A stretch of DNA of 54,624 nucleotides. It comes from Sulfuritalea sp. GTDB lineage: Bacteria; Pseudomonadota; Gammaproteobacteria; Burkholderiales; Rhodocyclaceae. Location: contig JALHNN010000001.1 in NCBI GenBank assembly GCA_022843505.1, forward strand, positions 1 through 54,624, given 5' to 3'. Positions 6,094 through 42,441 of this stretch are shown piece after piece (the first letter of the stretch is position 1; the number at the start of each line of letters is the position of its first letter). The position numbers and the translations under genes were made by a program. The notes under the pieces are model-generated. The model saw only the letters and a program-made list of their open reading frames with translations. It had not been told where the DNA came from and did no database searches.

Positions 6094-6145
6094 CGCTTAA
6101 CATCTCGTGTTGCGCTGTCGAGATTTTTATCCAACCTTGGTTTTC

Positions 6146-6730
6146 ATGGACATCCTCCTTTCCGTCCTGGTCCCTTCCCTGCCCGAACGGCTGGACAAAT
6201 TGAGTGAATTGCTCGCGGTCCTCGCAAAGCAGGCCGATCCCCAGTTGGAGGTCATCGCCTTTCTCGACAACCGCGCCCGCCATCTGGGCACGAAGAGAAA
6301 CGACATGATGGACATGGCCGCCGGGCGCTACGTCTGCCACATTGACGACGACGACTCCGTGTCACCGGATTTCTTCAGGACACTGAAGCCCGAACTGGAG
6401 CACGGAGTCGATTTGGTGGCCTACAATGCCGATTGCAGCCTGAACGGCTCGCCGCCGTTTATCGTCCGCACGATCCTTGGTGCGCAGAACGAACAGCCGA
6501 AACACCTGCCCCACGGGCGATTCTCAGACATCATCCGCACGCCATGGCACTGGTGCGCGTGGCGAACCGACTTTGCGCGGGACTTTCGTTTCCCGGATCA
6601 CCACGACGGTGCCGAGGACTGGTTCTTTCTCAAGCAGGCACTGCCCAAGGTGAAGACATGGCGGAAGGTAGAGAAGGTTCTGTTCCATCACCGGTATTGC
6701 CGGGAGCGGACGACGTTTGGGCCGCGGTAA
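6146..6730 (+). CDS. GT2-family glycosyltransferase
   Basis: 'LLSVLVPSLPER...LGTKRNDMMDMAAGRYVCHIDDDD...GAEDWFF'. Confidence 0.85.
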   Translation: MDILLSVLVPSLPERLDKLSELLAVLAKQADPQLEVIAFLDNRARHLGTKRNDMMDMAAGRYVCHIDDDDSVSPDFFRTLKPELEHGVDLVAYNADCSLNGSPPFIVRTILGAQNEQPKHLPHGRFSDIIRTPWHWCAWRTDFARDFRFPDHHDGAEDWFFLKQALPKVKTWRKVEKVLFHHRYCRERTTFGPR

Positions 6731-6731
6731 G

Positions 6732-7283
6732 CTAAGGGCTGCGGCCCTCGGGGTCGCCCTTGTTGTTCGGTGAAGGGATGCGGCGCAGTTGGCTATGCCA
6801 GCGCAAGGCACGCAGCGCGGTGTCATCGAGCGGATGGCGAAGCACGTCGAGGCAGTCGGCCAGGCCGTCTGCACATTTCCCAAGCTCGTCGTAGTCCGCA
6901 GTCCGCACGGTCCATCCGTCGAGTTCATGGTCCAGGATTTCGGCGACTAACCGACGGGCCTCGGCGTGCTCGTTCGACATGAGCCAATCGCGGAAGCGGC
7001 CCTCGATTGCGGTCACGATTGTCTCTGCGAGGGCAGAAGCATCCGGAGTGTCCTCTACAGGTCGGACGGCGGAGCTATGTCCCATGACATGATTTCGCAG
7101 TGCTACAGGATCGGCCAACATCGCTCGCACTTCCGACGCCAACACTAGGCCAAACCGCCCAACCAATCGCCCGACACAGCGCTGAATGATGGCAAGCCCC
7201 CGGTCAAGTGCGCTGTATTTGGAACGCCAGCGGTTGTATCTCTGCCACTTCCGGGCGGTTGTGGAAGTTACTCGATTCTTCAT
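6732..7283 (-). CDS. Cassette ORF, hypothetical
   Basis: Ends 'PNNKGDPEGRSP' read through the attC arm; contains 'CVGRLVGR' attC-arm peptide. Confidence 0.6.
   Translation of the reverse strand: MKNRVTSTTARKWQRYNRWRSKYSALDRGLAIIQRCVGRLVGRFGLVLASEVRAMLADPVALRNHVMGHSSAVRPVEDTPDASALAETIVTAIEGRFRDWLMSNEHAEARRLVAEILDHELDGWTVRTADYDELGKCADGLADCLDVLRHPLDDTALRALRWHSQLRRIPSPNNKGDPEGRSP
6735..6771 (+). repeat. attC half-site (L'-R' arm only), array 1 left boundary
   Basis: agggctgcggccctcg-GGGTCG-cccttgtt-GTTCGGT; left arm missing next to the convergent GT gene. Confidence 0.55.
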
Positions 7284-7305
7284 GTTGGTGAATCACTGGG
7301 TCTGC
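7157..7305 (+). repeat. Degenerate attC site
   Basis: GCCCAAC caatcgcccgacac ... TGGTGA atcactg GGTCTGC; arms pair poorly. Confidence 0.45.
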
Positions 7306-7649
7306 GGAAAGATTAGTGCCTCGCTGCCGTCATCGGCCGCAGCGATCATCATCTTGTCGAGGAAGTCGTTCAGCGGGCTGTTGCCCACCTCGTCTTCGCG
7401 GGTCATCGCGCGTCCGACATCCCTCGCCCATGCCTTTCGGCGGCGCGTATCCACTTTGCAGTTGTTGAGTGGGCCACCGTTTCTCCAGTGACTAGCCCAT
7501 GCCAGAGTTCCGACGCCAATCTCGATCACGAGTTTGTTATCGCGGACCACGCACGCAAGCGGCGCAGACCCAGCGCCCACAGCCAACGCCCTAGCGGCGG
7601 ACTTCTTCGAGCGTGGCGTTGCCCGCTCAACATTGGATTTCTTTTTCAT
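7293..7649 (-). CDS. Cassette ORF, hypothetical
   Basis: Start and GGAGG RBS inside attC 7564-7697. Confidence 0.75.
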   Translation of the reverse strand: MKKKSNVERATPRSKKSAARALAVGAGSAPLACVVRDNKLVIEIGVGTLAWASHWRNGGPLNNCKVDTRRRKAWARDVGRAMTREDEVGNSPLNDFLDKMMIAAADDGSEALIFPQTQ

Positions 7650-7697
7650 AGAGTGGTGCCTCCGCTCGCGGGCGTCGGCTGATGCTTATTGTTCGGC
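7564..7697 (+). repeat. attC site
   Basis: GCAGACC cagcgccca CAGCCAACGCCC ... GGGCGTCGGCTGA tgcttatt GTTCGGC. Confidence 0.85.
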
Positions 7698-7991
7698 TTA
7701 AAGGTCACGGGCCATGGCCGCGTCGATGGCGTGGCGGAGTGAGCACCAGTTAGTGCTAGCGAGGATGTCGTCCAGTGTGGCGAGGTTGGATTGCCCGAGG
7801 GCACGATTTTCCAGCCACCTGATTCTGTCCGTGTCGGTGGTCTCTTTCGCCGAACCAGTCGGCACAGCAGCAACGACCTTGATGGGGTCGCGAGATTCGG
7901 GCGGACTGCCTGCGCTCGGGCTGGCCATCGCGTCCAGCATGTCCGCGCAGGCGGCGTGAAATTGATCGGGGGTCTTGATCGGTGTCGTCAT
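7698..7991 (-). CDS. Cassette ORF, hypothetical ('DTDRIRWLE...SLRHAIDAAM' family)
   Basis: Stop TAA abuts R' box; paralog at 31435-31692. Confidence 0.75.
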   Translation of the reverse strand: MTTPIKTPDQFHAACADMLDAMASPSAGSPPESRDPIKVVAAVPTGSAKETTDTDRIRWLENRALGQSNLATLDDILASTNWCSLRHAIDAAMARDL

Positions 7992-8039
7992 TGGGTTGGC
8001 GGGTTTACGTTCTGGTCGTGGCTGACCTCCGTGTTCGGA
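7849..8039 (+). repeat. attC site (191 bp, long coding loop)
   Basis: GCCGAAC cagtcggca CAGCAGCAACGACC ... GGTCGTGGCTGA cctccgt GTTCGGA. Confidence 0.8.
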
Positions 8040-8378
8040 TTAGTAGAGGTTTTCACTGTAGAGTGTGCCGGGGACGCTTACCTGCTCGCGGATTTGTCCG
8101 GTCGTCTCGGCTCTCTTCCACGCGGTCTCGCGGTCCAAGAATTTGCCCCGGATGTCGATGAAGCCCTGTTCCTTTACCCGGCGGTGATAGCCGTCCCCGT
8201 AGATGCGGTGCAGCGTGGCCCGCATGTCGGGCGAGAAGTGGCGCACGCCAGCGACGATCAAGCCGTCATCCATCAGCATCGCGGCGGACACGATGCGATC
8301 CGAACCAGACGCCAGACCATCAATGACGGCCCGCGAGACGGCAGGGAGAGATTCGGGGCTTTGGAGTGGGGCCGTCAT
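8040..8378 (-). CDS. Cassette ORF, conserved small phage protein ('RIVSAA...GVRH...EQGFID..GKFLDRETAW...LYSENLY')
   Basis: Recognisable widespread phage hypothetical motif pattern. Confidence 0.8.
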   Translation of the reverse strand: MTAPLQSPESLPAVSRAVIDGLASGSDRIVSAAMLMDDGLIVAGVRHFSPDMRATLHRIYGDGYHRRVKEQGFIDIRGKFLDRETAWKRAETTGQIREQVSVPGTLYSENLY

Positions 8379-8399
8379 GAGGTCAGCTTAGTGTTCGGC
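8299..8399 (+). repeat. attC site
   Basis: TCCGAAC cagacgcca GACCATCAATGACGGCCC ... GGGCCGTCATGAGGTCA gcttagt GTTCGGC; ATGA start/stop overlap lies in the stem. Confidence 0.9.
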
Positions 8400-8818
8400 G
8401 AAATACGCACTTCGCTCGGGTGGCCATACTTTTGCCATACGGGCACTGGTTTGTCCCCTAATGGCTCTAGCACTTCGCGCAGTCGCTTCATGTCTTTCGA
8501 GTCCGCCACGCCTTCGTCGTAGGTCTGGCAGTAATTGTCGATGGATGCCCGGTATCGACCGATTTCCGCGTGAAGATGCGCCTTTTCTCGTTCGTCTTTG
8601 GCAATTGCTGCGTCCATTTTTTCAAGCGTCTGTATCGCGCGGAATAGCGTCAGCGTTACCGGGTGCTGATTTGCACGAAATTCGGCAGCCCACTCGCGGA
8701 GGTTATCCACAAGATAAGGCACGCCGAACAAGCGATCAGAGCCAACGCTGACAGCGGCTCCTTGGTTTTCGATAGTTGGATTTGTATTCATGGGTTGAGA
8801 GTAGTTCTGCGCTGTCAT
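8375..8818 (-). CDS. Cassette ORF, hypothetical
   Basis: Begins within attC ('VSVGSDRLFG'), ends 'PNTKLTS'. Confidence 0.75.
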   Translation of the reverse strand: MTAQNYSQPMNTNPTIENQGAAVSVGSDRLFGVPYLVDNLREWAAEFRANQHPVTLTLFRAIQTLEKMDAAIAKDEREKAHLHAEIGRYRASIDNYCQTYDEGVADSKDMKRLREVLEPLGDKPVPVWQKYGHPSEVRISPNTKLTS

Positions 8819-8842
8819 CGTGGCTCACTCGCAGGGTTCGGC
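8723..8842 (+). repeat. attC site
   Basis: GCCGAAC aagcgatca GAGCCAACGCTGACAGCG ... CGCTGTCATCGTGGCTCA ctcgcagg GTTCGGC. Confidence 0.92.
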
Positions 8843-9234
8843 GTAAGAAGAGCGCGAATGTCGTCGGCGTAGTCTGCCAGCCGCGCACCGCTCTTTGTGC
8901 GCTCGGCCTCTTCCAGCGCGTAGCGCAGTCGGTCGAAGTTGGGTGCCGTGCCAGTCATGCGCGCTTCGATGGCTCTCCATGTCGGCTCGTATTCAGGCCA
9001 GTCAGATTCGACCACCACGCATTGCAGTAGGCTCTTACCTTCGAGCTTCCGCCCACAGGCCACCGTGCTTCCGAGACTGCGGAGTTTGTCCCATTCCACA
9101 CGCGACAGGTGCTTGCGGGCGTCGCTGAGTTTGACGACGAAGTATCTCGGCTCGCGAGCGAACGCCGAACCCACGGCCACAGCACAACCGGCGCGCTCGT
9201 CCGGCTTGCGATCATTTTCAGTTGGATTTTGCAT
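8815..9234 (-). CDS. Cassette ORF, conserved phage protein ('FAREPRYFVVKLSD...CVVVESDWPEYEPTW')
   Basis: Widespread phage hypothetical motif; ends 'PNPASEPR'. Confidence 0.8.
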   Translation of the reverse strand: MQNPTENDRKPDERAGCAVAVGSAFAREPRYFVVKLSDARKHLSRVEWDKLRSLGSTVACGRKLEGKSLLQCVVVESDWPEYEPTWRAIEARMTGTAPNFDRLRYALEEAERTKSGARLADYADDIRALLTPNPASEPR

Positions 9235-9288
9235 AGAGTGTTGGCGCGGCTTTAGCCCCGCGCCGGTGGCTGATCCGAACCGTTAGCC
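9164..9288 (+). repeat. attC site
   Basis: GCCGAAC ccacggcca CAGCACAACCGGCGCG ... CGCGCCGGTGGCTGA tccgaacc GTTAGCC. Confidence 0.92.
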
Positions 9289-10059
9289 GAAAGACATCAT
9301 GCGTTGTTGCTGACGCTTGGCCGCAATTTCGCAGTATTCCTCGGAAAGTTCGATGCCGATGGCGTAGCGTCCGAGTTCTCGCGCGGCCTGTAGCGTGGTT
9401 CCGCTGCCCATGAACGGATCGAGCACCGTCATTCCTTCCACGCTCACGCTCGCCATGAGGCGTTTCCACGCGCCAAGCGGCTTCACGCACGGATGGCCGT
9501 TCTTCTCTGGTGTTTCCGTCAGCGTGTAGCTGCATGGTGTGCCGAAGTTCCGCTTCGTCGGGTTTTTGCCGTAGTAGAGGATCGGTTGCGCGTCGAGGTT
9601 GCCCCACGTTTGCAGCCCGACGGCTGCCGGTTGGTAGTAGCACCCGAAGCTGTCCGGCTGCGGATAGCGCATCATGTTCGTGTTCCCCGGCGTCACGACA
9701 GTTGGCCATTTGGCCACGCATCGGCGGATCACGTCCGCCACCACGTCGCGGATATATTCCGGCGTGTCATCGAAGTCGCTCGTGTAGTTTCCCCGCCCGC
9801 GGTTCGTGCTCATGCTGCCACGTCCGCCGTGGATGCCATAGGGCGGGTCAGTCATCACGAGATGGCACTTCATTTCGTCCAGCACTTCGCGGCAGTCCGC
9901 GTGATAGATGGCGCACCATTCATCACGGTAGTAGAGGCTCCTCGAAGAAAGACCGGCTAACCAGTCGCCAGAGCCAACGCCGACAGCGGCCCGAGGTTTC
10001 TCGGGAGTCTGTCCGGCGTCGGATGCCAGTTGAAATTTTGCGCTGTCGGCGTGGCTCAT
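9283..10059 (-). CDS. DNA N4-cytosine/N6-adenine methyltransferase (beta class), carried as a cassette
   Basis: 'TDPPYG' catalytic motif, 'HPCVKP', 'VLDPFMGSGTT', 'IGIELSEEYC'; stop TAA inside GTTAGCC box. Confidence 0.92.
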   Translation of the reverse strand: MSHADSAKFQLASDAGQTPEKPRAAVGVGSGDWLAGLSSRSLYYRDEWCAIYHADCREVLDEMKCHLVMTDPPYGIHGGRGSMSTNRGRGNYTSDFDDTPEYIRDVVADVIRRCVAKWPTVVTPGNTNMMRYPQPDSFGCYYQPAAVGLQTWGNLDAQPILYYGKNPTKRNFGTPCSYTLTETPEKNGHPCVKPLGAWKRLMASVSVEGMTVLDPFMGSGTTLQAARELGRYAIGIELSEEYCEIAAKRQQQRMMSFG

Positions 10060-10072
10060 CTAGGTGTTGGGC
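9955..10072 (+). repeat. attC site
   Basis: GGCTAAC cagtcgcca GAGCCAACGCCGACAGCG ... CGCTGTCGGCGTGGCTCA tctaggt GTTGGGC. Confidence 0.95.
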
Positions 10073-10302
10073 GAAGAGATGCCGTCGTTATCGGCGAGGT
10101 CTTGCACGAGCTGCTTGAGCAGCGAGGCAGGCACACGCACCGCGTCTGCGTGGTTCACTTTCAGCGTGATGTAGGCCAGCGGATTGTCGTCGAAGTATCC
10201 GCGACCCGAGTAGGATTTGGTGTAGGTGGTCGCTGTGGGCGCAGACGCGCCCAACCCGCCAGTCGAGCCAACGCTCACAGTCTGTCCTTTTTCGGTAGTC
10301 AT
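10060..10302 (-). CDS. Cassette ORF, hypothetical
   Basis: ATG 10302 with GGAG RBS in attC loop; ends 'SPNT*' directly before the MTase ATG. Confidence 0.7.
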   Translation of the reverse strand: MTTEKGQTVSVGSTGGLGASAPTATTYTKSYSGRGYFDDNPLAYITLKVNHADAVRVPASLLKQLVQDLADNDGISSPNT

Positions 10303-10359
10303 AATTACGCTCCGTCTTTTTTGGTGTTCGAGTGAGCGCGGCTCACTTCCATGTTCGGC
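10249..10359 (+). repeat. attC site
   Basis: GCCCAAC ccgccagtc GAGCCAACGCTCAC ... GTGAGCGCGGCTCA cttccat GTTCGGC. Confidence 0.92.
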
Positions 10360-10703
10360 AGAATCACGATGCTGTTCGAGATGCCGTCCCACGCGGCCAT
10401 CTGGTAGCCGCTGGCGTTGCCATCGATTTCACCGTCCACGATGTCGCGGAAGTGTGCGGCGATGTTCCACACCTTGTAGGCTGGAAAGTAGAAGGCGCGC
10501 AGCGGTTTCGCGTCCTTGAAGATTTCGATTAGCGCGTCCTGTTTGCGCGGCTCCTTGAGGTAGCTTGCGCGCACAGTGTAGCCGCGATCCGGTTCCTTGG
10601 ACTCGAAGGCAATCGAGTCGATCAAAGAGCCGAACGAGGGGCCAGACCCAACGAGCACAGCGGCTCCTTGGTCGGCGGTAGTGGGTTCTGTATTCGTGTC
10701 CAT
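10305..10703 (-). CDS. Cassette ORF, hypothetical
   Basis: MDTNTEP...'VLVGSGPSFG'...'PNMEVSRAHS'. Confidence 0.75.
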   Translation of the reverse strand: MDTNTEPTTADQGAAVLVGSGPSFGSLIDSIAFESKEPDRGYTVRASYLKEPRKQDALIEIFKDAKPLRAFYFPAYKVWNIAAHFRDIVDGEIDGNASGYQMAAWDGISNSIVILPNMEVSRAHSNTKKDGA

Positions 10704-10747
10704 AGAGTTATTTGCGCTGTGCTCGCGGGTCATCCCCGGTGTTGGGC
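10629..10747 (+). repeat. attC site
   Basis: GCCGAAC gaggggcca GACCCAACGAGCACAGCG ... CGCTGTGCTCGCGGGTCA tccccggt GTTGGGC. Confidence 0.92.
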
Positions 10748-10980
10748 CTCGTCCGCCGCAGGAGCCGACCATAGCCATGCAGGCGCTCTCCGACTGTGCA
10801 TGTGGCGGGGATTTTGCTCGGCCACCACATATCGCCGTGCCTTATGACCGTGCCGTTTTTCACAGGCTTCCAGCCTCGGGGGTAGTCGGGCGGACGAGGC
10901 CCAACCAGCCGACCACAGCGAACGCCCTTCATGCGGCCTTTCTTCGTGGATGGCGTTCTACGCTCGTGTGATGTTTTCAT
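10708..10980 (-). CDS. Cassette ORF, small basic hypothetical
   Basis: 'VRCGRLVGP' start-arm peptide, 'PNTGDDPR' end-arm peptide. Confidence 0.7.
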   Translation of the reverse strand: MKTSHERRTPSTKKGRMKGVRCGRLVGPRPPDYPRGWKPVKNGTVIRHGDMWWPSKIPATCTVGERLHGYGRLLRRTRPNTGDDPRAQRK

Positions 10981-11035
10981 AGTTCAAAGGGTTTCACGTC
11001 CGCCCTCGGGCGTCCGCTGATTCGGATTGTTAGCG
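10899..11035 (+). repeat. attC site
   Basis: GCCCAAC cagccgacca CAGCGAACGCCC ... GGGCGTCCGCTGA ttcggatt GTTAGCG. Confidence 0.9.
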
Positions 11036-11398
11036 AAGCCAGCGTGCGGTTGTGCCATCGCGCAGAGTGAGCGTGTCGCCGCACGACATGACGACTTCCC
11101 CTGATTCAAGTTCCACGCGCTCGCCGTTCGGCAGTTCTGCGCGGTATTTTCCGCCGTTCCACTTCGGAAGGTTTACTTGCTCCGGGTGCTCGATGTAGCC
11201 TACTGCCCACCAGTGGTGTCCGCCATCCGAGATTTCCATGAGCACGTTGTCGCTTATCGCGAAGTGCGAGAAGTCGGGTTGCTTGCCGTATCGCTGCACG
11301 ATTTCGAGGGCGAGCAGTTCTTCGGTAGTCTCGAACGGGACCGCTGTCGGATGGTCCACGTCGCAGAATGATGGGATGTGTTGTTTGAATGAGTTCAT
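11030..11398 (-). CDS. Cassette ORF, hypothetical (ORF open to 11485)
   Basis: MNSFKQHIPSFCD...; stop TAA inside GTTAGCG box. Confidence 0.75.
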   Translation of the reverse strand: MNSFKQHIPSFCDVDHPTAVPFETTEELLALEIVQRYGKQPDFSHFAISDNVLMEISDGGHHWWAVGYIEHPEQVNLPKWNGGKYRAELPNGERVELESGEVVMSCGDTLTLRDGTTARWLR

Positions 11399-11410
11399 AA
11401 GAATGAAAGA

Positions 11411-11499
11411 CGCTAACAAGCGATTAGAGACAACGCGGGGACTGGCCGCTTTCTGCATTCGGGGCCAGAGGGCCGCGTGTCTCACTCGCGATGTTCAGG
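11411..11499 (+). repeat. attC site
   Basis: CGCTAAC aagcgatta GAGACAACGCGG ... CCGCGTGTCTCA ctcgcgat GTTCAGG. Confidence 0.9.
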
Positions 11500-11711
11500 G
11501 AAATCGGTTCGTGCTTTTCGCAGGTGCTGTCTTCAGGGCGCCAGTCGATTTTATCTTTCACCAGTTCGCACCATCCCATGATGCGGCCCGAAAGTTGCAT
11601 GGTCTTCGTTGGCACGGATGGCATCCCCCAGTGTCTGCATGAGAAGCACCGGGGACGCCGAGCCCCCGGATCAATCGGCAGAGCCAACGCTCCATGTTCA
11701 TGTGTTTTCAT
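11424..11711 (-). CDS. Anchor cassette ORF, Cys-rich (CxxCxxW...C...C), possibly metal-binding
   Basis: ATGA-coupled to VRR-NUC; only a degenerate R''-L'' arm (ccggatc aatcggca GAGCCAACGC, 11666-11690). Confidence 0.65.
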   Translation of the reverse strand: MKTHEHGALALPIDPGARRPRCFSCRHWGMPSVPTKTMQLSGRIMGWCELVKDKIDWRPEDSTCEKHEPISLNIASETRGPLAPNAESGQSPRCL

Positions 11712-16323: not shown

Positions 16324-16661
16324 GCTGGCAACGATAGCGCGGCCTCGTCCCTGATCGACTTCAAAACGGCACTCATGGCGCGGGGCTTGCCGGAGCCGAG
16401 AAAGAACCGCCAGGCAAGGCCGTGGACGGAGGAATAGAAGGTGCGGGCGTCGTAACCGGCTTCGAACAGCAGCCGCCACCGCTCGGCGGCTGCGGGCGTA
16501 AGGACATACCCGGCGGGGGCGCGGGCCACGCGGGCGCGCAAAGCCCGGGCCAATCGTCCGGCGCGCTCCCGGTCGGCATCGCTGGTCTCATCGGACAGGG
16601 TGATAAGAATATGGGGCGCACTGCTGGGGAAGCGGCGTTGCTCGGTCAGGGTGAAGGGCAT
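16320..16661 (-). CDS. Hypothetical early protein
   Basis: 113 aa ORF in leftward run. Confidence 0.6.
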   Translation of the reverse strand: MPFTLTEQRRFPSSAPHILITLSDETSDADRERAGRLARALRARVARAPAGYVLTPAAAERWRLLFEAGYDARTFYSSVHGLAWRFFLGSGKPRAMSAVLKSIRDEAALSLPA

Positions 16662-16686
16662 GGCGATATGGAAAACGGGGGTTGGA

Positions 16687-16890
16687 CTAGTGCGTGTTGG
16701 CCGAATCAGTCGTCGCTAGTTCTGCTCGAATCTTGTCAGCGAGCTTTGCCGTTCCCGCCATCCGCATTCCGTAGTCGTCTAGCCAGTCTAGGGCTTTCCG
16801 AAGAAGTTCCTCCTTGCGGGATTCCCGAGATCGGCGGTTTCTTTCCTCCCGCCGCTCGATGGCGTCGTCGGTTGAGTTGTAGAATCTCAT
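16687..16890 (-). CDS. Hypothetical early protein
   Basis: MRFYNSTDD..., ATGA coupled. Confidence 0.5.
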   Translation of the reverse strand: MRFYNSTDDAIERREERNRRSRESRKEELLRKALDWLDDYGMRMAGTAKLADKIRAELATTDSANTH

Positions 16891-17203: not shown

Positions 17204-17644
17204 TCAGAAGCGTGGGTTAGGGTTCCAGTATTCGCACAGCATTGAGTCCGTGTCCTCGTTGGGATCTTCGGGGTCGGCAATGTCGCCGGCCTCGTGAAAC
17301 TTGGCCCCGTTCCGGATCATGTCTTCGACTTGGTTGACGTGGCGATAGTGGTTCGACTCGCCCAGGGGTGCCCCGGCGAGCAGCTCCCGGATTTCGTCGG
17401 CGATAAGTTCGCGCTCCAGTTGGGGCAGTCCGTCGAGCAAGCCGCTCGGCTCAAAGTCGCGCGCAACCGCCGTCAGATCGTAACTTGGCGTGAATTCGCA
17501 AAGGTGCGCGTGCAGATTGCGGTTGAATCCGTAAACGGTTTGCACGCTGGACAGGTAGGGCTTGAGCTTGTCCGGGATGGTCCAGTCGGACGTATCTTTG
17601 ATGCCGATGAAGCACCAGTTAGGGGCGGGGGTGGTGGTGTTCAT
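17204..17644 (-). CDS. Hypothetical early protein
   Basis: MNTTTPAPNWCFIG..., ATGA coupled. Confidence 0.65.
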   Translation of the reverse strand: MNTTTPAPNWCFIGIKDTSDWTIPDKLKPYLSSVQTVYGFNRNLHAHLCEFTPSYDLTAVARDFEPSGLLDGLPQLERELIADEIRELLAGAPLGESNHYRHVNQVEDMIRNGAKFHEAGDIADPEDPNEDTDSMLCEYWNPNPRF

Positions 17645-17967
17645 GGGTGGTCGGCCCCTCCGGCTTTGGCTATGGCGGTGCGGGCGGAGTCGATTGTGCG
17701 TTGAACGCATGTAGTATTAGTGCCATCATGGAATTGCCCGACGACAAGCGACAGCGTATCTTTCAGCGCAGCCAACAAATCGGGCGCGGCGGCAATGAGG
17801 CGGGCGTCGGCTTCGGCGTTCGCTTCCTTCACGATGCAGTGGTCATTCGCAGCTTCATCGGAATAGATTCCGAATTGAGGCGAGTGCTCCGGGGTGGCGT
17901 GCTTGCTTATTGCCCACGGCCCTGGCGTGTGTTCGGACGTATTGGAGTTGTTGATTAGGCTGTTCAT
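17641..17967 (-). CDS. 'TPGPW...ARLIAAAPDLL' family small phage protein
   Basis: HTPGPW, EADARLIAAAPDLLAALK, ARTAIAKA. Confidence 0.8.
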   Translation of the reverse strand: MNSLINNSNTSEHTPGPWAISKHATPEHSPQFGIYSDEAANDHCIVKEANAEADARLIAAAPDLLAALKDTLSLVVGQFHDGTNTTCVQRTIDSARTAIAKAGGADHP

Positions 17968-18023
17968 GATATGCGCGCGGTTCCGCAGTGGTTGGTGGTG
18001 ATGTTTGATTTTGATGGTCATGG

Positions 18024-25715: not shown

Positions 25716-25940
25716 TTAGGTTGATGGAACGGAATCCGTCTCGAAACCGTGCTCAGTCACGCGGCACCCCGATGGGTCAGTCAGAAGACCAAGCGCGGAC
25801 TCTGCTGCTTGCTTCGTGTGAAACCGGCACGCGCTGTTTGCGTCGAATGTCCAAGCGAGTAACCCCTCGTAGAAATTCACGTATACAGGGGCCGATATAG
25901 GCCCCGCCTCGATTAGCCACAGAAAGGCGGTAGTGCTCAT
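25716..25940 (-). CDS. IS passenger, small phage-type hypothetical ('WLIE...WT.D...A.RF...TEHGF')
   Basis: ATGA coupled; motif pattern. Confidence 0.7.
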   Translation of the reverse strand: MSTTAFLWLIEAGPISAPVYVNFYEGLLAWTFDANSACRFHTKQAAESALGLLTDPSGCRVTEHGFETDSVPST

Positions 25941-26230
25941 AGGTCTCTCGCTTTGGCAAGGGCTGCGCGGGCCGCCTGCCAGACTTCCTCGCCTCGCGAT
26001 GTGCGCCCCGTGTCCATCGTGTGAACCTCGAAATAGTTCGCCAGGGCATACAGTGCGGTATGCAGCTCGGGAGCGGCGGCAATGAGCTGCGCGTCGGGCG
26101 CGTGCTGAACGTGTGCGACGACAAAGTTATTGATCGAGCCGGGCGTTGGGTCCAAGGGCGACCAGACCTCAATAGCGAAACCGTCTTGGGCTTGAGTCCG
26201 CCACGGTCCTTTCGTGGGTTGGTCACTCAT
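25937..26230 (-). CDS. IS passenger, 'TPGPW...LIAAAPEL' family
   Basis: TKGPW...DAQLIAAAPEL...ARAALAKA. Confidence 0.8.
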   Translation of the reverse strand: MSDQPTKGPWRTQAQDGFAIEVWSPLDPTPGSINNFVVAHVQHAPDAQLIAAAPELHTALYALANYFEVHTMDTGRTSRGEEVWQAARAALAKARDL

Positions 26231-26547
26231 GACTGGCCCTCCGCCTTGGCGATTGCGTCGCGCAGAGCTTCCCACTCTAGATAAGAGGCAGGCTCTTTTG
26301 CCGGGTCAGGGATGCGATTACAGAACCCCTGAAACGCGAGGCGCGCAGCTTGCAGCAGGTCCGGAGCGGCGGAGATCAGTGAGGCATCGGCACGGTTGGC
26401 GGCGCGCGCCTCTTCGGACATGTCGCTCTGACAAACCGCTACCGTTGCATATGACTCACGAGCCTCAATGGCGATCAAGCGACCATCATGGAATACGTTG
26501 GCGGTCCACGGGGCTGGAGTGAATCTGGTGAATTTAGGTGTTTTCAT
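26227..26547 (-). CDS. IS passenger, 'TPGPW...LIAAAPDLL' family
   Basis: FTPAPW...ADASLISAAPDLL...RDAIAKAEG. Confidence 0.8.
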   Translation of the reverse strand: MKTPKFTRFTPAPWTANVFHDGRLIAIEARESYATVAVCQSDMSEEARAANRADASLISAAPDLLQAARLAFQGFCNRIPDPAKEPASYLEWEALRDAIAKAEGQS

Positions 26548-26559
26548 ACACACGAGACA

Positions 26560-26607
26560 GTGCACTGGGTGCACTGCATTGCAAGATAAATGTTGCACTC
26601 AGTGCAC
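26560..26607. promoter_or_regulatory. Two palindromic operator-like sites in a divergent intergenic region
   Basis: GTGCAC-tgg-GTGCAC (26560-26574) and TTGCAC-tca-GTGCAC (26593-26607). Confidence 0.6.
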
Positions 26608-26626: not shown

Positions 26627-26818
26627 ATGACCTTTGCTGAGAAGCTAAAGCCGTGGACGGCGAATAAGCTGATGGAAGTGATCGGCGTTCCGCGCCGAAC
26701 GGCTTATGCGTGGAAATCTGGCGAGAAGATCGCACCCGGTTGGGTGCAGGCGCTCGTCCTCTTCCGACTGAAATACGTGAAACCCGACAATGCTGAACCT
26801 CGACGCGCTGAAGGTTGA
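26627..26818 (+). CDS. Small Cro-like HTH protein overlapping the transposase start
   Basis: 'ANKLMEVIGVPRRTAYAWKSG...P..WVQ'. Confidence 0.7.
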   Translation: MTFAEKLKPWTANKLMEVIGVPRRTAYAWKSGEKIAPGWVQALVLFRLKYVKPDNAEPRRAEG

Positions 26819-28091
26819 TTCCCGCGCTGAGGTTGGAGCTACGGATTACGTCTTCACCGTCCGGGTGGATGACGCTCCCGATCCGTGCTGTCCTCAGCCA
26901 CTCGTCCGCAACGGCAACAAGCCCGTCGCCTACCGCGACCTGCCGATGCACGGCCGGCATGTGACGATCCGTGTTGAACGGCAGCGATACCTTTGCCGAT
27001 CGTGCGGCAAAACTCGCTACGTCGCCGTTCCGCACATGAACGAGACGAACATGATGACCCAACGGCTCGTCGAATACATCATCACGCGATCCATGGAAAC
27101 GCAGTTCACTGCGCTCTCCCGCGAGTTGGGCGTGGATGAAGGCACCGTGCGTCGCATCTTCCGTCGCTTCGCCAAGGTCCAATTGGAGCGGCTGAACATC
27201 GAGACGCCTGAAGTCATGGGCATCGACGAAATCCACATGCTGAGCCGCTACCGTGGCGTGATTACCAACGTGAAAGAACGGACGCTCGTCGATCTGTTGG
27301 AGACGCGTAACAAGCCCGCCATCATCAAATATCTCTCCGAGCTGAAGAATAAGGAGCGCGTTCAGGTCGTGGCGATGGACATGTGGAATCCATACCGCGA
27401 TGCCGTCCGGGAGATACTGCCCAAGGCTCGCATCGTCGTGGACAAGTTCCACGTCGTGCGAATGGCCAACGAGGGAATGGAACGTATCCGCAAGGAGCTT
27501 CGCCTGACCTTGCCTACCAAGACCCGGCTTCAGCTCAAAGACGATCGCTGGATACTGCTCCGCAATAAGGAGGACTTGCCCGCCTTCAAACGGATGATCG
27601 CGGAGACGTGGTTCGACCGCTTCCCCGACCTCAAGTCCGGCTACGACGCCAAAGAGGCGTTCCGCGCCATCTGGACCGCCGCCACTGCCGACGAGGCGCG
27701 AGACCGCTATGACAAGTGGCTGGATGGTCTCGACGAGACCTGTCAGGCCGCGTTCGCCGACCTCATCACGGCTATGTGCAACTGGCGGGAGGAAATCTTC
27801 GCCTACTTCGATCTGCGGGTCACGAACGCATACACCGAAGCAATCAACGGCATCGCTCGAATAGTAAACCGCGCCGGTCGCGGCTACTCTTTCGAGGTGC
27901 TCCGCGCCAAGATGCTGCTCAATTACGCCAACCACCGCATGGTGTGGGGCGGCGGTATGGCCATCCGCCGGAAGCTCGGCATAACGCTCCCATTGGCGCT
28001 TGGCGTGCCGTATTGGAAGCTCCAACACCCCGAGAAGATGAAGCTCCATCAACCTCGGATACTGGACGAGAATTGGCTGTCCGATTTTTAG
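26790..28091 (+). CDS. ISL3-family DDE transposase
   Basis: zf 'RYLCRSCGKT', HTH, 'MGIDE', 'VAMDMWNPY', 'VVDKFHV', 'TNAYTEAING...RGYSFEVLRAK'. Confidence 0.95.
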   Translation: MLNLDALKVDSRAEVGATDYVFTVRVDDAPDPCCPQPLVRNGNKPVAYRDLPMHGRHVTIRVERQRYLCRSCGKTRYVAVPHMNETNMMTQRLVEYIITRSMETQFTALSRELGVDEGTVRRIFRRFAKVQLERLNIETPEVMGIDEIHMLSRYRGVITNVKERTLVDLLETRNKPAIIKYLSELKNKERVQVVAMDMWNPYRDAVREILPKARIVVDKFHVVRMANEGMERIRKELRLTLPTKTRLQLKDDRWILLRNKEDLPAFKRMIAETWFDRFPDLKSGYDAKEAFRAIWTAATADEARDRYDKWLDGLDETCQAAFADLITAMCNWREEIFAYFDLRVTNAYTEAINGIARIVNRAGRGYSFEVLRAKMLLNYANHRMVWGGGMAIRRKLGITLPLALGVPYWKLQHPEKMKLHQPRILDENWLSDF

Positions 28092-28858: not shown

Positions 28859-29077
28859 ATGACCAAACCCGACAAACAATACCTCCCGATCCACGGGGAA
28901 AAAATCCGCGAGGCCCGCATTTGCGCCGGTCTGACGGTGCGGCAGCTGGCCGCGGGACTCGGCAAGGGGACGAAGGCCGTTTACCTGTGGGAGAACGGGG
29001 AAAGCTACCCGCGCCTCCCCGACTACTTTCGCCTGTGCAGGCTGCTTGGCTGCGGGCGCGCACCCTTTGGGCCATGA
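28859..29077 (+). CDS. XRE-family HTH regulator
   Basis: 'GEKIREARICAGLTVRQLAAGLG...VYLWENGESYP'. Confidence 0.85.
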   Translation: MTKPDKQYLPIHGEKIREARICAGLTVRQLAAGLGKGTKAVYLWENGESYPRLPDYFRLCRLLGCGRAPFGP

Positions 29078-29403
29078 CGAATACTGACACTTCGCGGTCC
29101 TCACAATCTGCGCCGGAGCGTGGCGCGTCCGATGGCCCGAGTTGCGCTGGGGCGGCGGGTTCGGCAATTCAGCCCGGCTCGACCGTCGCCTTCAAAGGCG
29201 AAGACGTGCAAGGCACCGTATCGCGGGTGAGAAACGGTCAAGCCTTCGTGAACTGGATAGGCTTCCGATATTCGCCGGCCTATGATGGGTGGCACCACGT
29301 CTCAAAACTCAGACTCTTGCCGAACGTCGCCAGTGAGCCACGGGCGAAGCCCGTTGGCTCTGATGGCTGGTTGGACTCCGAACCCTCGACCCACGAACAA
29401 TGA
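29074..29403 (+). CDS. Anchor cassette ORF (SH3/KOW-like 'IQPGSTVAF...GTV')
   Basis: ATGA-coupled to the HTH; half-site GTTGCGCTG gggcggcgg GTTCGGC at ~29141-29165. Confidence 0.7.
   Translation: MTNTDTSRSSQSAPERGASDGPSCAGAAGSAIQPGSTVAFKGEDVQGTVSRVRNGQAFVNWIGFRYSPAYDGWHHVSKLRLLPNVASEPRAKPVGSDGWLDSEPSTHEQ
29319..29376 (-). repeat. attC site (58 bp)
   Basis: plus: GCCGAAC gtcgccag TGAGCCACGGGC gaa GCCCGTTGGCTC tgatggctg GTTGGAC. Confidence 0.95.
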
Positions 29404-30290
29404 AAAACTCCAGCATCGAATGGACGACGCACACTTTCAATCCGTGGATCGGATGCTCGAAAGTCTCACCAGGCTGCGCACACTGCTACGCCGAAACGCT
29501 CAACAAGCGCATGGCCTGGACGCAGTGGGGTGACGCTGGCGAACGCTTCCGCACCTCTCCGCACAACTGGAATGAGCCGCGCCGCTGGCACCGCGAGGCA
29601 ACCAAGTCCGGCCAGCGCGCCCGCGTCTTTTGCGCGAGCCTCGCTGACTGGCTCGACCCGCGCGCCCCCGTGGCTTGGCTCGCCGAACTGCTCTCACTCG
29701 TGAAGGAGACGCCAAACCTCGACTGGCTATTTCTCACGAAAAGGCCGCAACTCTGGCGCGACCGAATGGCTGCTGTCGTCGGAATGCACATGAGCGATGG
29801 GCCGGCCGCGGTCGATCAATGCTCTGGTGCTGCGCTCGCGGCGGCATGGCTGAACGGTGCAGCGCCGCTGAACGTGTGGATTGGGACAAGTGTCGAGGAT
29901 CAGGATCGTGCCGACGAACGCATTCCTCATCTGCTCGATATTCCGGCGCGGATTCGATTTCTGAGCTGTGAGCCGCTGCTTGGTCCGCTCGACCTCAGCG
30001 ACTACACCGATCCAATCGACGGCGGTTATGTGGGTCGGTCATTCATCGACTGGATTATCGTTGGCGGCGAGAGCGGTCCCAAGGCGCGCCCGATGGAAGC
30101 GGATTGGGTGAGGTCGCTGCGCGAAGAGTGCGAAGTGAATGGCGCGGCTTTCTTCTTCAAGCAGTGGGGCGGAGTGCGAAAGAAGGAAGCCGGACGGATT
30201 CTCGACGGCGAGACATTCGATCAACTGCCAACCGTCGCCGAGGAGTCCAACAACCCGGTCAGCGGCGCGGCGAAGCCGCGTTCGCTGTAG
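29400..30290 (+). CDS. Phage Gp37/Gp68 (DUF5131) family protein, carried as a cassette
   Basis: 'SIEWT..TFNPWIGCSKVSPGCAHCYAE', 'LTKRP', 'FLSCEPLLG', 'VGGESG', 'FFFKQWGG'. Confidence 0.93.
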   Translation: MKNSSIEWTTHTFNPWIGCSKVSPGCAHCYAETLNKRMAWTQWGDAGERFRTSPHNWNEPRRWHREATKSGQRARVFCASLADWLDPRAPVAWLAELLSLVKETPNLDWLFLTKRPQLWRDRMAAVVGMHMSDGPAAVDQCSGAALAAAWLNGAAPLNVWIGTSVEDQDRADERIPHLLDIPARIRFLSCEPLLGPLDLSDYTDPIDGGYVGRSFIDWIIVGGESGPKARPMEADWVRSLREECEVNGAAFFFKQWGGVRKKEAGRILDGETFDQLPTVAEESNNPVSGAAKPRSL

Positions 30291-30304
30291 TGGATTGGTT
30301 CAGC
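30245..30304 (-). repeat. attC site (60 bp)
   Basis: plus: GTCCAAC aacccgg TCAGCGGCGCGGC gaa GCCGCGTTCGCTG tagtggattg GTTCAGC. Confidence 0.95.
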
Positions 30305-30312
30305 TCTTTCTA

Positions 30313-30588
30313 ATGAACACGCGAAACATAATCTTGAGTGGAATCGGCTATCGCATGACAGAAATAGACGGCCAACTCATCTTTGAGGAGGTCGGAGGAA
30401 TCTATGGGGTAACAAACCGCTTCACCCTCGAATGGCTAGGCACCGGATGGTATCTCGTGGATTTCGAGCACAGCTTCGGACACGTCCGGCTCTCGCACAT
30501 CAGCGCAGCGGAAAAGTGGGTCCGCGAGAACTACACCACCGAATACAAAGACGGCACAGGAACGGTGAAGCTGAACAGGCCGAGCTGA
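30313..30588 (+). CDS. Cassette ORF, hypothetical
   Basis: MNTRNIILSG...KLNRPS*. Confidence 0.75.
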   Translation: MNTRNIILSGIGYRMTEIDGQLIFEEVGGIYGVTNRFTLEWLGTGWYLVDFEHSFGHVRLSHISAAEKWVRENYTTEYKDGTGTVKLNRPS

Positions 30589-30642
30589 GGAGCGGAGATG
30601 CAATTTATGAATAGCAAGCAAAACGAGAATCCGTCGCCTCTG
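30570..30642 (-). repeat. Collapsed attC plus emptied cassette
   Basis: GCTGAAC aggccgagc TGAGGAGCGGA ... TCCGTCGCCTC runs directly into the next site; leaves mini-ORF 30607-30654 MNSKQNENPSPLANK. Confidence 0.6.
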
Positions 30643-30753
30643 GCGAACAAATAGTTCAGCCGCGAGGCCGCGAATTTCACCTATGAAAAGCACACGGAAA
30701 AGACTTACGAAAAAGGACAGCCCGGCCTCGTTGGCTGGAACGGCGGGTTCGCC
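30642..30753 (-). repeat. attC site
   Basis: plus: GGCGAAC aaatagt TCAGCCGCGAGGCCG ... CGGCCTCGTTGGCTG gaacggcgg GTTCGCC; ATG 30683 in loop. Confidence 0.9.
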
Positions 30754-31117
30754 TCTTTTGCTTTCAGCGCACGCCGTCCAGAATCCCGATGTGGGGCATG
30801 GCTGGCAACTCGACCTGAAATGCGGCGCTCCGCAACTGGTGATCTACCATGTGTGGACTATCGGGACATACAAAAACGGGCACCCGATGTTCGATCTTCG
30901 GGCTGTGACTACCGACAGTCTCAAGGCAAAAGAATATTCGAAGATGCTCCGCCGCGACAAGGAGGCGAATAGAGAAACGTGGTATCGCGTCCACATCGAG
31001 CCGCGTGTGGCAAACCACCTCTACGGTGAGTGTATGCGCGAATTTCGAGAAGCCACCGGACGCTTGGCGAACAACCCAGTCAGACACGAAGGGGCGCAGC
31101 CCCGGAGTTGTCTGTAG
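30683..31117 (+). CDS. Cassette ORF, hypothetical
   Basis: 'ASLAGTAGS' start-arm peptide; 'ANNPVRH' end-arm peptide. Confidence 0.75.
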   Translation: MKSTRKRLTKKDSPASLAGTAGSPLLLSAHAVQNPDVGHGWQLDLKCGAPQLVIYHVWTIGTYKNGHPMFDLRAVTTDSLKAKEYSKMLRRDKEANRETWYRVHIEPRVANHLYGECMREFREATGRLANNPVRHEGAQPRSCL

Positions 31118-31131
31118 TGGACTGGTTCGCA
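31066..31131 (-). repeat. attC site
   Basis: plus: GGCGAAC aacccag TCAGACAC gaaggggcgcagccccgga GTTGTCTG tagtggactg GTTCGCA. Confidence 0.88.
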
Positions 31132-31135
31132 CTTT

Positions 31136-31438
31136 ATGGACATCGGAACTAAAATCATCGACGAGATCGTGAAGCAGGGAATGTTCTGCGTGAACTATCC
31201 TGACCCAGAAGCCGCGCACGTCTTTGTGTGGTCATCGGGGGCGGCGGAACAACTCCACGCCATCGTTTGCGAATCCGGCGAGGTGCAAATCCCGCGCCGA
31301 GAGGCCGCGCTCTACGGCCAAGCCCTGCAACTCTTGGGCGCACCCGACAACGGCAATCCTGCCGAGCTGCTGGAATGGGCCGAGAAAACAGGGAAGCGCC
31401 TTTGTGCGAACGTTACGGCTCAGCCACGCGACCTATGA
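31136..31438 (+). CDS. Cassette ORF, hypothetical
   Basis: MDIGTKII...ANVTAQPRDL*. Confidence 0.75.
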   Translation: MDIGTKIIDEIVKQGMFCVNYPDPEAAHVFVWSSGAAEQLHAIVCESGEVQIPRREAALYGQALQLLGAPDNGNPAELLEWAEKTGKRLCANVTAQPRDL

Positions 31439-31492
31439 GCAACATACCTGAAGACACGTTCCCTCGCGTTGAGCTGGGGCCGGTGGTTGGGG
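31405..31492 (-). repeat. attC site
   Basis: plus: TGCGAAC gttacggc TCAGCCACGCG ... CGCGTTGAGCTG gggccggtg GTTGGGG; ATGA overlap in loop. Confidence 0.88.
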
Positions 31493-31692
31493 GCCGCTCG
31501 AAGCCGCTGAGCGACACCCAACTGCTGGACTGGATTGAGAACAATCCCGGACGGGTTCTGCACGCCAAAGGCTACCATGGGTCTCGCGATTCGTGGGGAT
31601 GGACAGAGCGCGGCGACTGGCGTGAAGCGAAATCCCTGCGCCATGCAGTGCTGGCAGCTATCGCGTCCTATGAAAAACAGACAGGCCCCTAA
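31435..31692 (+). CDS. Cassette ORF ('DTQLLDWIE...SLRHAVLAAI' family)
   Basis: Paralog of 7698-7991; stop TAA inside CCCTAAC box. Confidence 0.75.
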   Translation: MSNIPEDTFPRVELGPVVGGRSKPLSDTQLLDWIENNPGRVLHAKGYHGSRDSWGWTERGDWREAKSLRHAVLAAIASYEKQTGP

Positions 31693-31876
31693 CAATGGAG
31701 ATGTGCCGACGAGCGGCACGAACGGAGAATAATTTATGCCCGTCGAAATCACAAAAATAGAAACCGACAAAGACGACCAACTGGTCATCCATGTGCGAGG
31801 CACCGGAGGCTTGAGCGCAGAAGCAACACCCGGATCAGTCGCCACGCCGCTCGTTGGCACTGGCTCGTGGTTGGGC
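31687..31876 (-). repeat. attC site (190 bp, long coding loop)
   Basis: plus: CCCTAAC aatggagat GTGCCGACGAGCGGC ... GCCGCTCGTTGGCAC tggctcgtg GTTGGGC; GGAG RBS and ATG 31736 in loop. Confidence 0.88.
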
Positions 31877-32062
31877 TCCGGTGCCGAATCGGCGAAGTCT
31901 TTGATCGAGCACTGGGAGACGCGCGCCGACTACCGACGCGGGCGCGGCTGGGATGACTCCGCGATGGCCTTCCAATACTGCGCAAACCAGCTCCGGGCGG
32001 CAATCGGCCTGCCCGAACGTCGCCAGCCGGAGCCCAACAGAACCGATGAGCCACACGGATAA
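31736..32062 (+). CDS. Cassette ORF, hypothetical
   Basis: 'LVGTGSWLG' arm peptide; ends 'PNRTDEPHG'. Confidence 0.75.
   Translation: MPVEITKIETDKDDQLVIHVRGTGGLSAEATPGSVATPLVGTGSWLGSGAESAKSLIEHWETRADYRRGRGWDDSAMAFQYCANQLRAAIGLPERRQPEPNRTDEPHG
32032..32054 (-). repeat. attC half-site, array 2 right boundary
   Basis: plus: GCCCAAC agaaccga TGAGCCAC; partner arm not found. Confidence 0.65.
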
Positions 32063-42195: not shown

Positions 42196-42441
42196 TCAGA
42201 TTTTTCCAGTACAATCCCGAGTCTCGTAAACGCGCCCGAACAGCCCAGGATTGCGCAGCCACCATCCATTGTAAAGGCGGTTGAAGGCTGAGAAGTTGCG
42301 GTTGCGCAGCCACCATCCGAATGAAGTTCCCTCCGGAGACGCTTCGCGATACCGAGCCAAAAGCTGGGGGGCTGGCACCTCCTCGCTGTGCTCGTTGGCC
42401 CAGCGCATGAACTCGGTCTTGTTGGTTTTGGGGGTGGTCAC
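42196..42441 (-). CDS. Hypothetical protein
   Basis: GTGA coupled to the large gene; 'FGWWLRNR...FN'. Confidence 0.55.
   Translation of the reverse strand: MTTPKTNKTEFMRWANEHSEEVPAPQLLARYREASPEGTSFGWWLRNRNFSAFNRLYNGWWLRNPGLFGRVYETRDCTGKI

Follow-up and report, generated by a model that had tools for sequence, protein, structure and literature searches.

The window analysed here is a stretch of 54,624 nucleotides (nt) that constitutes an entire contig (C1, JALHNN010000001.1), one of the 597 contigs in a bin assigned to Sulfuritalea sp. (G000, GCA_022843505.1). Its gene content is phage-like and includes helicases, exonucleases, a VRR-NUC nuclease, a tail chaperone, head morphogenesis and virion proteins and an ISL3 transposase. 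Embedded in it is array A, a run of ten units bounded by attC sites, the recombination sites of integron cassettes. These sites have the plus strand as their top strand, and all ten genes are encoded on the minus strand. The units, each with its site and gene, are:

7300..7691 (+), unit A1: attC 7564-7697; gene 7293-7649, minus strand, 118 amino acids (aa), no family
7692..8033 (+), unit A2: attC 7849-8039 (191 nt); gene 7698-7991, minus strand, 97 aa, 45 residues attC-encoded
8034..8393 (+), unit A3: attC 8299-8399; gene 8040-8378, minus strand, phrog_839
8394..8836 (+), unit A4: attC 8723-8842; gene 8375-8818, minus strand, 147 aa
8837..9282 (+), unit A5: attC 9164-9288; gene 8815-9234, minus strand, phrog_7810, ATGA overlap with A4
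9283..10066 (+), unit A6: attC 9955-10072; N6/N4 DNA methyltransferase gene 9283-10059, minus strand
10067..10353 (+), unit A7: attC 10249-10359; gene 10060-10302, minus strand, 80 aa
10354..10741 (+), unit A8: attC 10629-10747; gene 10305-10703, minus strand, 132 aa
10742..11029 (+), unit A9: attC 10899-11035; gene 10708-10980, minus strand, 90 aa, 17-nt end complementarity
11030..11493 (+), unit A10: attC 11411-11499; minus-strand gene ending at 11030

A family is known for only three of these genes, namely phrog_839, phrog_7810 and the N6/N4 methyltransferase. The start of the A10 gene is uncertain, being either GTG at 11485, within the attC, or ATG at 11398, just outside it.

Sites, unit ends and reversed genes

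All ten sites of array A, and six full sites of a second array described below (array B), have the order of boxes R''-spacer-L''...L'-spacer-R' with spacers of 5-6 nt. The detector used to call them gave one match at a score of at least 30 in 15 shuffled windows, both strands included. In a leave-one-out analysis each of the ten array A sites scored higher on the plus strand, and five had no minus-strand call. In 15 of 16 automatic arm alignments it was the L'' arm that carried the extra base, A1 being unclear. This is the arrangement described in the accessible text of PMC5027507, and thus the plus strand is the attC top strand. Folding gave a less clear picture: when the sites were taken in their circular form, the R box was paired in the minimum-energy fold of the bottom strand in nine of ten, but the bottom strand was the more stable one in only four. 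The AAC/GTT triplets are conserved in nine of the ten R'' boxes. The exception is A1, in which the core reads GGT/ACC (7299-7305 and 7564-7570) in place of GTT/AAC, ACC in R'' being matched by GGT at the left end, so that both ends are altered and pairing is kept.

An earlier note on this DNA had listed, for each unit, a left boundary that is the reverse complement of the unit's own R''. The ten pairs were all found where that note had placed them, and the 7-mers are perfect in each case, the match extending over 7-17 nt. As the note had also claimed, R'' and R' mismatch in most linear sites; only site 4 is perfect (1/10). At the four variable positions of the R box, 40/40 match within units vs 25/40 in linear sites. 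When the pairings were shuffled, all ten were perfect 3 times in 1,000,000, with a mean of 2.2 perfect 7-mers (permutation p ~3e-6); the power of this test is limited, as GTTCGGC is common to four units and the signal is carried by six other 7-mers. Array B served as an out-of-sample replicate. There R'' was perfect in six of the seven units that have one, with a single mismatch in the other, and 2 of 40,320 permutations were as good (p 5e-5). End complementarity is a known property, expected in any integron array, and is mentioned in passing in the accessible text of PMC5371416.

None of the ten units of array A has the canonical layout, in which a top-strand gene lies upstream of its attC. 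Instead, nine genes (the A10 start being uncertain) begin at an ATG inside their own attC, with a predicted leader of 15-45 residues running through L'' and R''; these leaders are read across R'' in all three frames. At six of nine gene junctions the gene passes the left G|TT and stops in the neighbour's attC. The A1 gene, which starts within its attC, stops 6 nt past the left boundary, and the stop of the A6 methyltransferase gene falls within the left R' box. The gap between genes is -4 to +4 nt at five of the junctions, and two of these are ATGA overlaps, as where the stop of the A4 gene overlaps the A3 start. The attC of each unit is predicted to double as the 5' end of the gene, giving it a start codon and a leader. 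The design appears inverted, with the recombination site serving as gene start, and cassettes could presumably be reordered without breaking a coupled operon. No description of genes that are reversed and start inside attC was found in the literature searched, a scope that leaves out the figures and Dryad annotation file of PMC9892861 and most subscription papers. Phage attC clusters as such are already published.

Movement of single units at G|TT

Array A was compared with seven runs from seven studies, the likely source run (X1) being excluded. Units A1, A4 and A7 were found in unrelated metagenomes, cut at G|TT and joined to other neighbours, which is what the earlier note had proposed to look for. 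Five contig pieces from four unrelated studies span exactly one unit, with both flanks unlike:

7299-7694, unit A1, in X3
7297-7693, unit A1, in X14
8393-8842, unit A4, in X11
8392-8840, unit A4, in X18
10066-10359, unit A7, in X3, with zero differences from the window unit

Three further pieces (A1 and A4 from X6, A4 from X8) likewise stop at the two unit boundaries, but each starts at a contig end. The single-unit pieces run from G|TT to G|TT and take in the attC that holds the gene's start, so that the crossover is fixed on G|TT of the plus strand. The whole A1 unit is present in X3, X6 and X14, in the last with two differences only, neither of which touches the core, and its copies with other neighbours retain the GGT/ACC core. 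That such a core is movable fits the tolerance of IntI1 for a single second-position core change reported in the accessible text of PMC2811028. A4 is the most widely shared unit of the array. In the phage locus L109 the identity with A4 stops exactly after GTT, and in L268, L269 and L270 the sequence differs beyond the unit boundary, i.e. the neighbours are others. The tails of the encoded proteins also vary: ten homologs of the A4 protein have nine different tails after an S/P-P-N read from the R' box, one of which resembles a peptide read from an array B site.

Sites of this type also occur beside genes for integron integrases (IntI). Against a TIGR02249 cut-off of 265, the neighbouring recombinases of L209, L151 and the phage locus L137 score 344, 344 and 294 bits. 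In the viral contig L137 (1182-7130), IntI is encoded on the same strand as the reversed cassette genes and downstream of them.

The earlier note had excluded terminator-like hairpins and repetitive extragenic palindromic (REP) elements, and we reach the same view. Since the sites form hairpins when folded and their translations give similar peptides, the repeats might be terminator- or REP-like structures, or conserved leader peptides, whose end complementarity is incidental. We find this scarcely credible: the complementarity spans the gene and not the hairpin, the leaders run across R'' in all three frames, and the changes of neighbour at G|TT refute it. The terminator or REP reading was rejected on the own-end complementarity together with the finding of single units with other neighbours at G|TT; the full R''-L''-L'-R' anatomy and the presence of the same site type beside IntI in Opitutaceae likewise speak for attC.

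In our view array A very likely consists of ten phage attC cassettes with antisense genes, which an integron integrase provided in trans probably cuts out and inserts as G|TT-to-G units. What the sequences show is the anatomy of the sites and their strand, complementary unit ends, antisense genes, single units with changed neighbours at G|TT, and this site type next to true IntI genes in Opitutaceae chromosomes and in one related phage. By known integron chemistry (PMC5027507 and PMC9892861, accessible text of both), IntI would cut the folded bottom strand, here the minus and coding strand, at AA|C. The unit would exit in circular form, its R'' meeting its own left end to restore a fully paired R box, and would re-enter at another G|TT. 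The integrase would most likely come from a Verrucomicrobiota (Opitutaceae-type) host or from a co-infecting phage. Each unit is predicted to bring a start codon and leader, while the neighbour's site gives a short tail, often with a stop beside the next start. With the attC at its 5' end, a gene would have start and leader within its own unit, and shuffling would preserve a coupled operon read with the phage early genes. The earlier note had proposed both crossover at G|TT and past circular intermediates. The first part is borne out by the anatomy, the IntI-linked site type and the neighbour swaps; the circles are inferred, none having been seen in the contigs of the likely source run.

Two other ways of moving the units deserve consideration. 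The sites could be descendants of attC whose units now move because their conserved arms anneal or recombine by homology, through phage exonuclease and annealing functions, with neither IntI nor circles. The genes flanking array A include an exonuclease and VRR-NUC, the contig is without an integrase, the arms are alike between sites, and homologs of the A4 protein show mid-gene swaps. However, the breakpoints lie on GTT itself and the arm accompanies just one of the units; an identical A7 stands between unlike flanks in another sample; and arm-to-arm homology would not keep the within-unit pairing of all 40 variable R-box positions. This explanation is in our view improbable. Still less probable is site-specific movement by a phage-encoded recombinase other than IntI (e.g. 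Xer-like), possibly encoded in the missing part of the phage. The matching contig in X1, probably the source, has 60,076 nt vs the 54,624 nt of the window, so about 5 kb of phage lies outside it and could hold such a gene. Yet the recombinases beside this site type, L137 included, exceed the IntI cut-off, and the site anatomy is that of IntI substrates.

Several points weigh against integrase-driven movement of the cassettes. The sites were called by a detector of our own, based on arms and stem and trained on these same sites, and not by IntegronFinder. The bottom strand is more stable than the top in only four of the ten circular-form sites, and the bottom strand of attC A5 gives no attC-like fold. 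There is no tyrosine recombinase on the window contig, and no circle or excision joint was found in the contigs of X1, the probable source, where the stretch is in one piece. A joint in X8 omits exactly unit A5, with a short side of only 27 letters. Units A2, A3, A5, A8, A9 and A10 were not seen whole among the matches listed. Homologs of A4 switch body mid-gene too (P0012, P0014-P0019); ordinary recombination also acts on them. Finally, the attC pattern of the window is present in 0/30 relatives of bin G000.

Bin G000 does carry an IntI, on contig C282 (446 bits). C1 and C177 are composition outliers in the bin, at 0.91 and 0.85 vs a median of 0.98. Since C1 is such an outlier and none of the 30 relatives carries the site pattern, the bin is probably not the phage host; the outlier status of C1 and C177 and the result for the relatives ruled it out as evidence on the host. 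As a separate observation, C282 (L002) is the start of a bacterial integron with IntI, a site resembling attI and a first gene that runs in the usual sense direction, and three tyrosine recombinase genes lie immediately behind intI.

Exchange at the R'' box

A second kind of exchange was seen at the other end of the gene body. Of 19 A4 protein homologs, 16 show a leader ending at the R''-encoded L-F/L-G, and these leaders are of at least four unrelated types. The remaining three have an eroded leader form, which suggests that attC loss also occurs. At the DNA level, L272 and L274 have a different attC joined at the R'' box of an A4-type body. Conversely, the A1 leader was found on three unrelated gene bodies, and attC A5 precedes another gene body both in L109 and in runs X5 and X8. 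L137 contains a core identical to that of site B3, but with a different R'' that matches L137's own unit. Within array A, attC A8 is 77% like attC A4 over 70 nt. In chromosomal arrays, too, it is normal for many bodies to share a single core (L101).

Three readings of this re-pairing at R'' stand side by side: a top-strand crossover by the integrase, homologous exchange in the conserved arm, and repeated creation of cassettes from a template.

The gene bodies themselves resemble phage accessory genes, some with plain homologs that are no cassettes. Homologs of A3 in other phages are plain genes, the similarity extending from right after R'' to the stop, and the loci with homologs of A5 (62) or of A3 (8) lie nearly all outside attC arrays. 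Tentatively, and on balance doubtfully, these findings can be joined in one interpretation. Phages of Opitutaceae-type hosts may keep a cassette pool of their own, made of ordinary phage genes, with integrase crossover taking place at either end of the gene body. A normal bottom-strand cut at R' would shuffle units and swap tails, and a top-strand cut at R'' would swap the attC core together with the leader and start codon. The true conserved unit would then be the body, from TTRRRY to RYYYAA, hence the complementarity of ends that follows the body. The origin of cassettes is a long-standing open question. If the joint interpretation holds, the arrays are a natural record of cassette making. 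They also provide matched cassette and non-cassette versions of one gene.

Second array, phage context and known systems

Array B comprises 7-8 units, again with genes that are antisense to the sites and run the same way as the flanking genes. In three of them the start lies just outside the attC and not within it. Its features are:

29159-32038, array B: attC top strand minus, genes plus
31876-31687, full attC, minus strand
31492-31405, full attC, minus strand
31131-31066, full attC, minus strand
30753-30642, full attC, minus strand
30304-30245, full attC, minus strand
29376-29319, full attC, minus strand
29165, left half-site, minus strand
32038, right half-site, minus strand
30648-30576, remnant unit of 72 nt
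29400-30290, DUF5131 gene, plus strand

A helix-turn-helix regulator gene (28859-29077) lies directly upstream of array B in the direction of its genes, and the ISL3-family transposase (26790-28091) lies inside the phage about 1 kb from the array.

Array A may extend beyond its ten units on either side:

6717..7299 (+), perhaps an eroded unit to the left of A1, with GCCCAAC resembling R'' at 7157 and part of a left boundary at 6717
11494..11711 (+), perhaps an eroded unit to the right of A10, with a degenerate R''/L'' arm near 11666-11690 and no right arm

The gene of the left candidate (6732-7283, minus strand) carries a typical leader motif, its arm score being close to chance; that of the right one (11424-11711, minus strand) is coupled to the VRR-NUC nuclease gene. 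A plus-strand glycosyltransferase gene (6107-6730) converges on array A, its final codons overlapping the possible eroded left boundary, and contig C177 has a gene resembling it.

Elsewhere in the window, three phrog_1273 paralogs (17644-18021, 25940-26275 and 26230-26598) occupy small-gene regions without attC sites, and a protein of 1743 aa (42438-47669) has a weak match to LPD38, a type of large polyvalent protein. Searches via the exonuclease and among GenBank phages gave no near relative of the whole phage. The phage-like contig C177 (2640-4199, L277) of the same bin carries three more attC of the same type with reversed genes on its minus strand, and one of its gene bodies is common to L109 but stands behind a different leader.

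A 63-nt stretch is common to C177 and positions 16639-16698 of the window; it ends at the GTT where the C177 array begins, and no array follows it in the window. It could be an empty, attI-like landing site of the phage, but the idea was dropped: its 18-nt motif was unmatched in viral contigs and gave no informative match in 274 loci. In these same searches no founding attG or attI site was identified. An attG insertion outside integrons is a possible start of an integrase-free array according to the accessible text of bioRxiv 10.1101/2022.09.11.507474.

To place the two arrays among others, a pattern derived from the window sites was used to fetch 54 viral and 126 bacterial loci, both sets therefore being biased to this site type. 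Before counting, we removed seven loci that overlapped or were duplicates, loci in which fewer than two sites shared a strand, and gaps above 1300 nt. A site was held by 24 of the 54 viral loci. The 48 viral units comprised 34 with antisense genes, 10 sense and 4 unclear; among the 43 bacterial units, whose loci all bore the titles Opitutaceae, Opitutus, Horticoccus or Verrucomicrobia, 2 were antisense, 36 sense and 5 unclear. Seven of the ten viral sense calls came from L101 and L119, which have cassettes in common. These two loci of the viral collection have near-identical attC and sense cassettes and resemble host chromosomal arrays. The left boundary matched the unit's own R'' in 43 of the viral units (vs 10 in the linear site) and in 32 of the bacterial ones (vs 8). 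Thus, the own-end rule is general to integron arrays, and gene reversal is a phage trait.

A complete integron has intI and attI beside its array, and neither accompanies the arrays on the window contig. Called with our detector, they have at least two same-strand attC within 4 kb, no intI and a phage context, as in a phage cluster of attC sites lacking an integrase (CALIN). Phage attC clusters without intI, often with orphan DNA methyltransferases, were described in PMC9892861 (2023), where IntI1 recombined five of six phage sites at G|TT. The accessible text of that paper presents bacterial-like arrays, with no antisense genes or starts inside attC, whereas the window has two fully reversed arrays, with leaders and tails encoded by the sites.

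Nivina et al. 2016 (PMC5027507) reported that extrahelical bases on one arm set the recombined strand and that R'' is cut on the top strand at a low rate; promoter-facing cassettes have, according to the accessible text, never been seen in integrons. The window differs from the case treated there in that its attC share an orientation while the genes run opposite to their own attC; a single inverted insertion does not yield this layout.

The sedentary chromosomal integrons of Opitutaceae and other Verrucomicrobiota (L151, L163, L185, L190, L209, L211, L213) are alike in attC type, with up to 27/30 identical left-arm bases, in the end rule and in having an adjacent IntI. They are unlike the window in the direction of their genes, which lie on the top strand ahead of the attC (36/43), whereas the cassette genes of the window are antisense with the attC at their 5' end.

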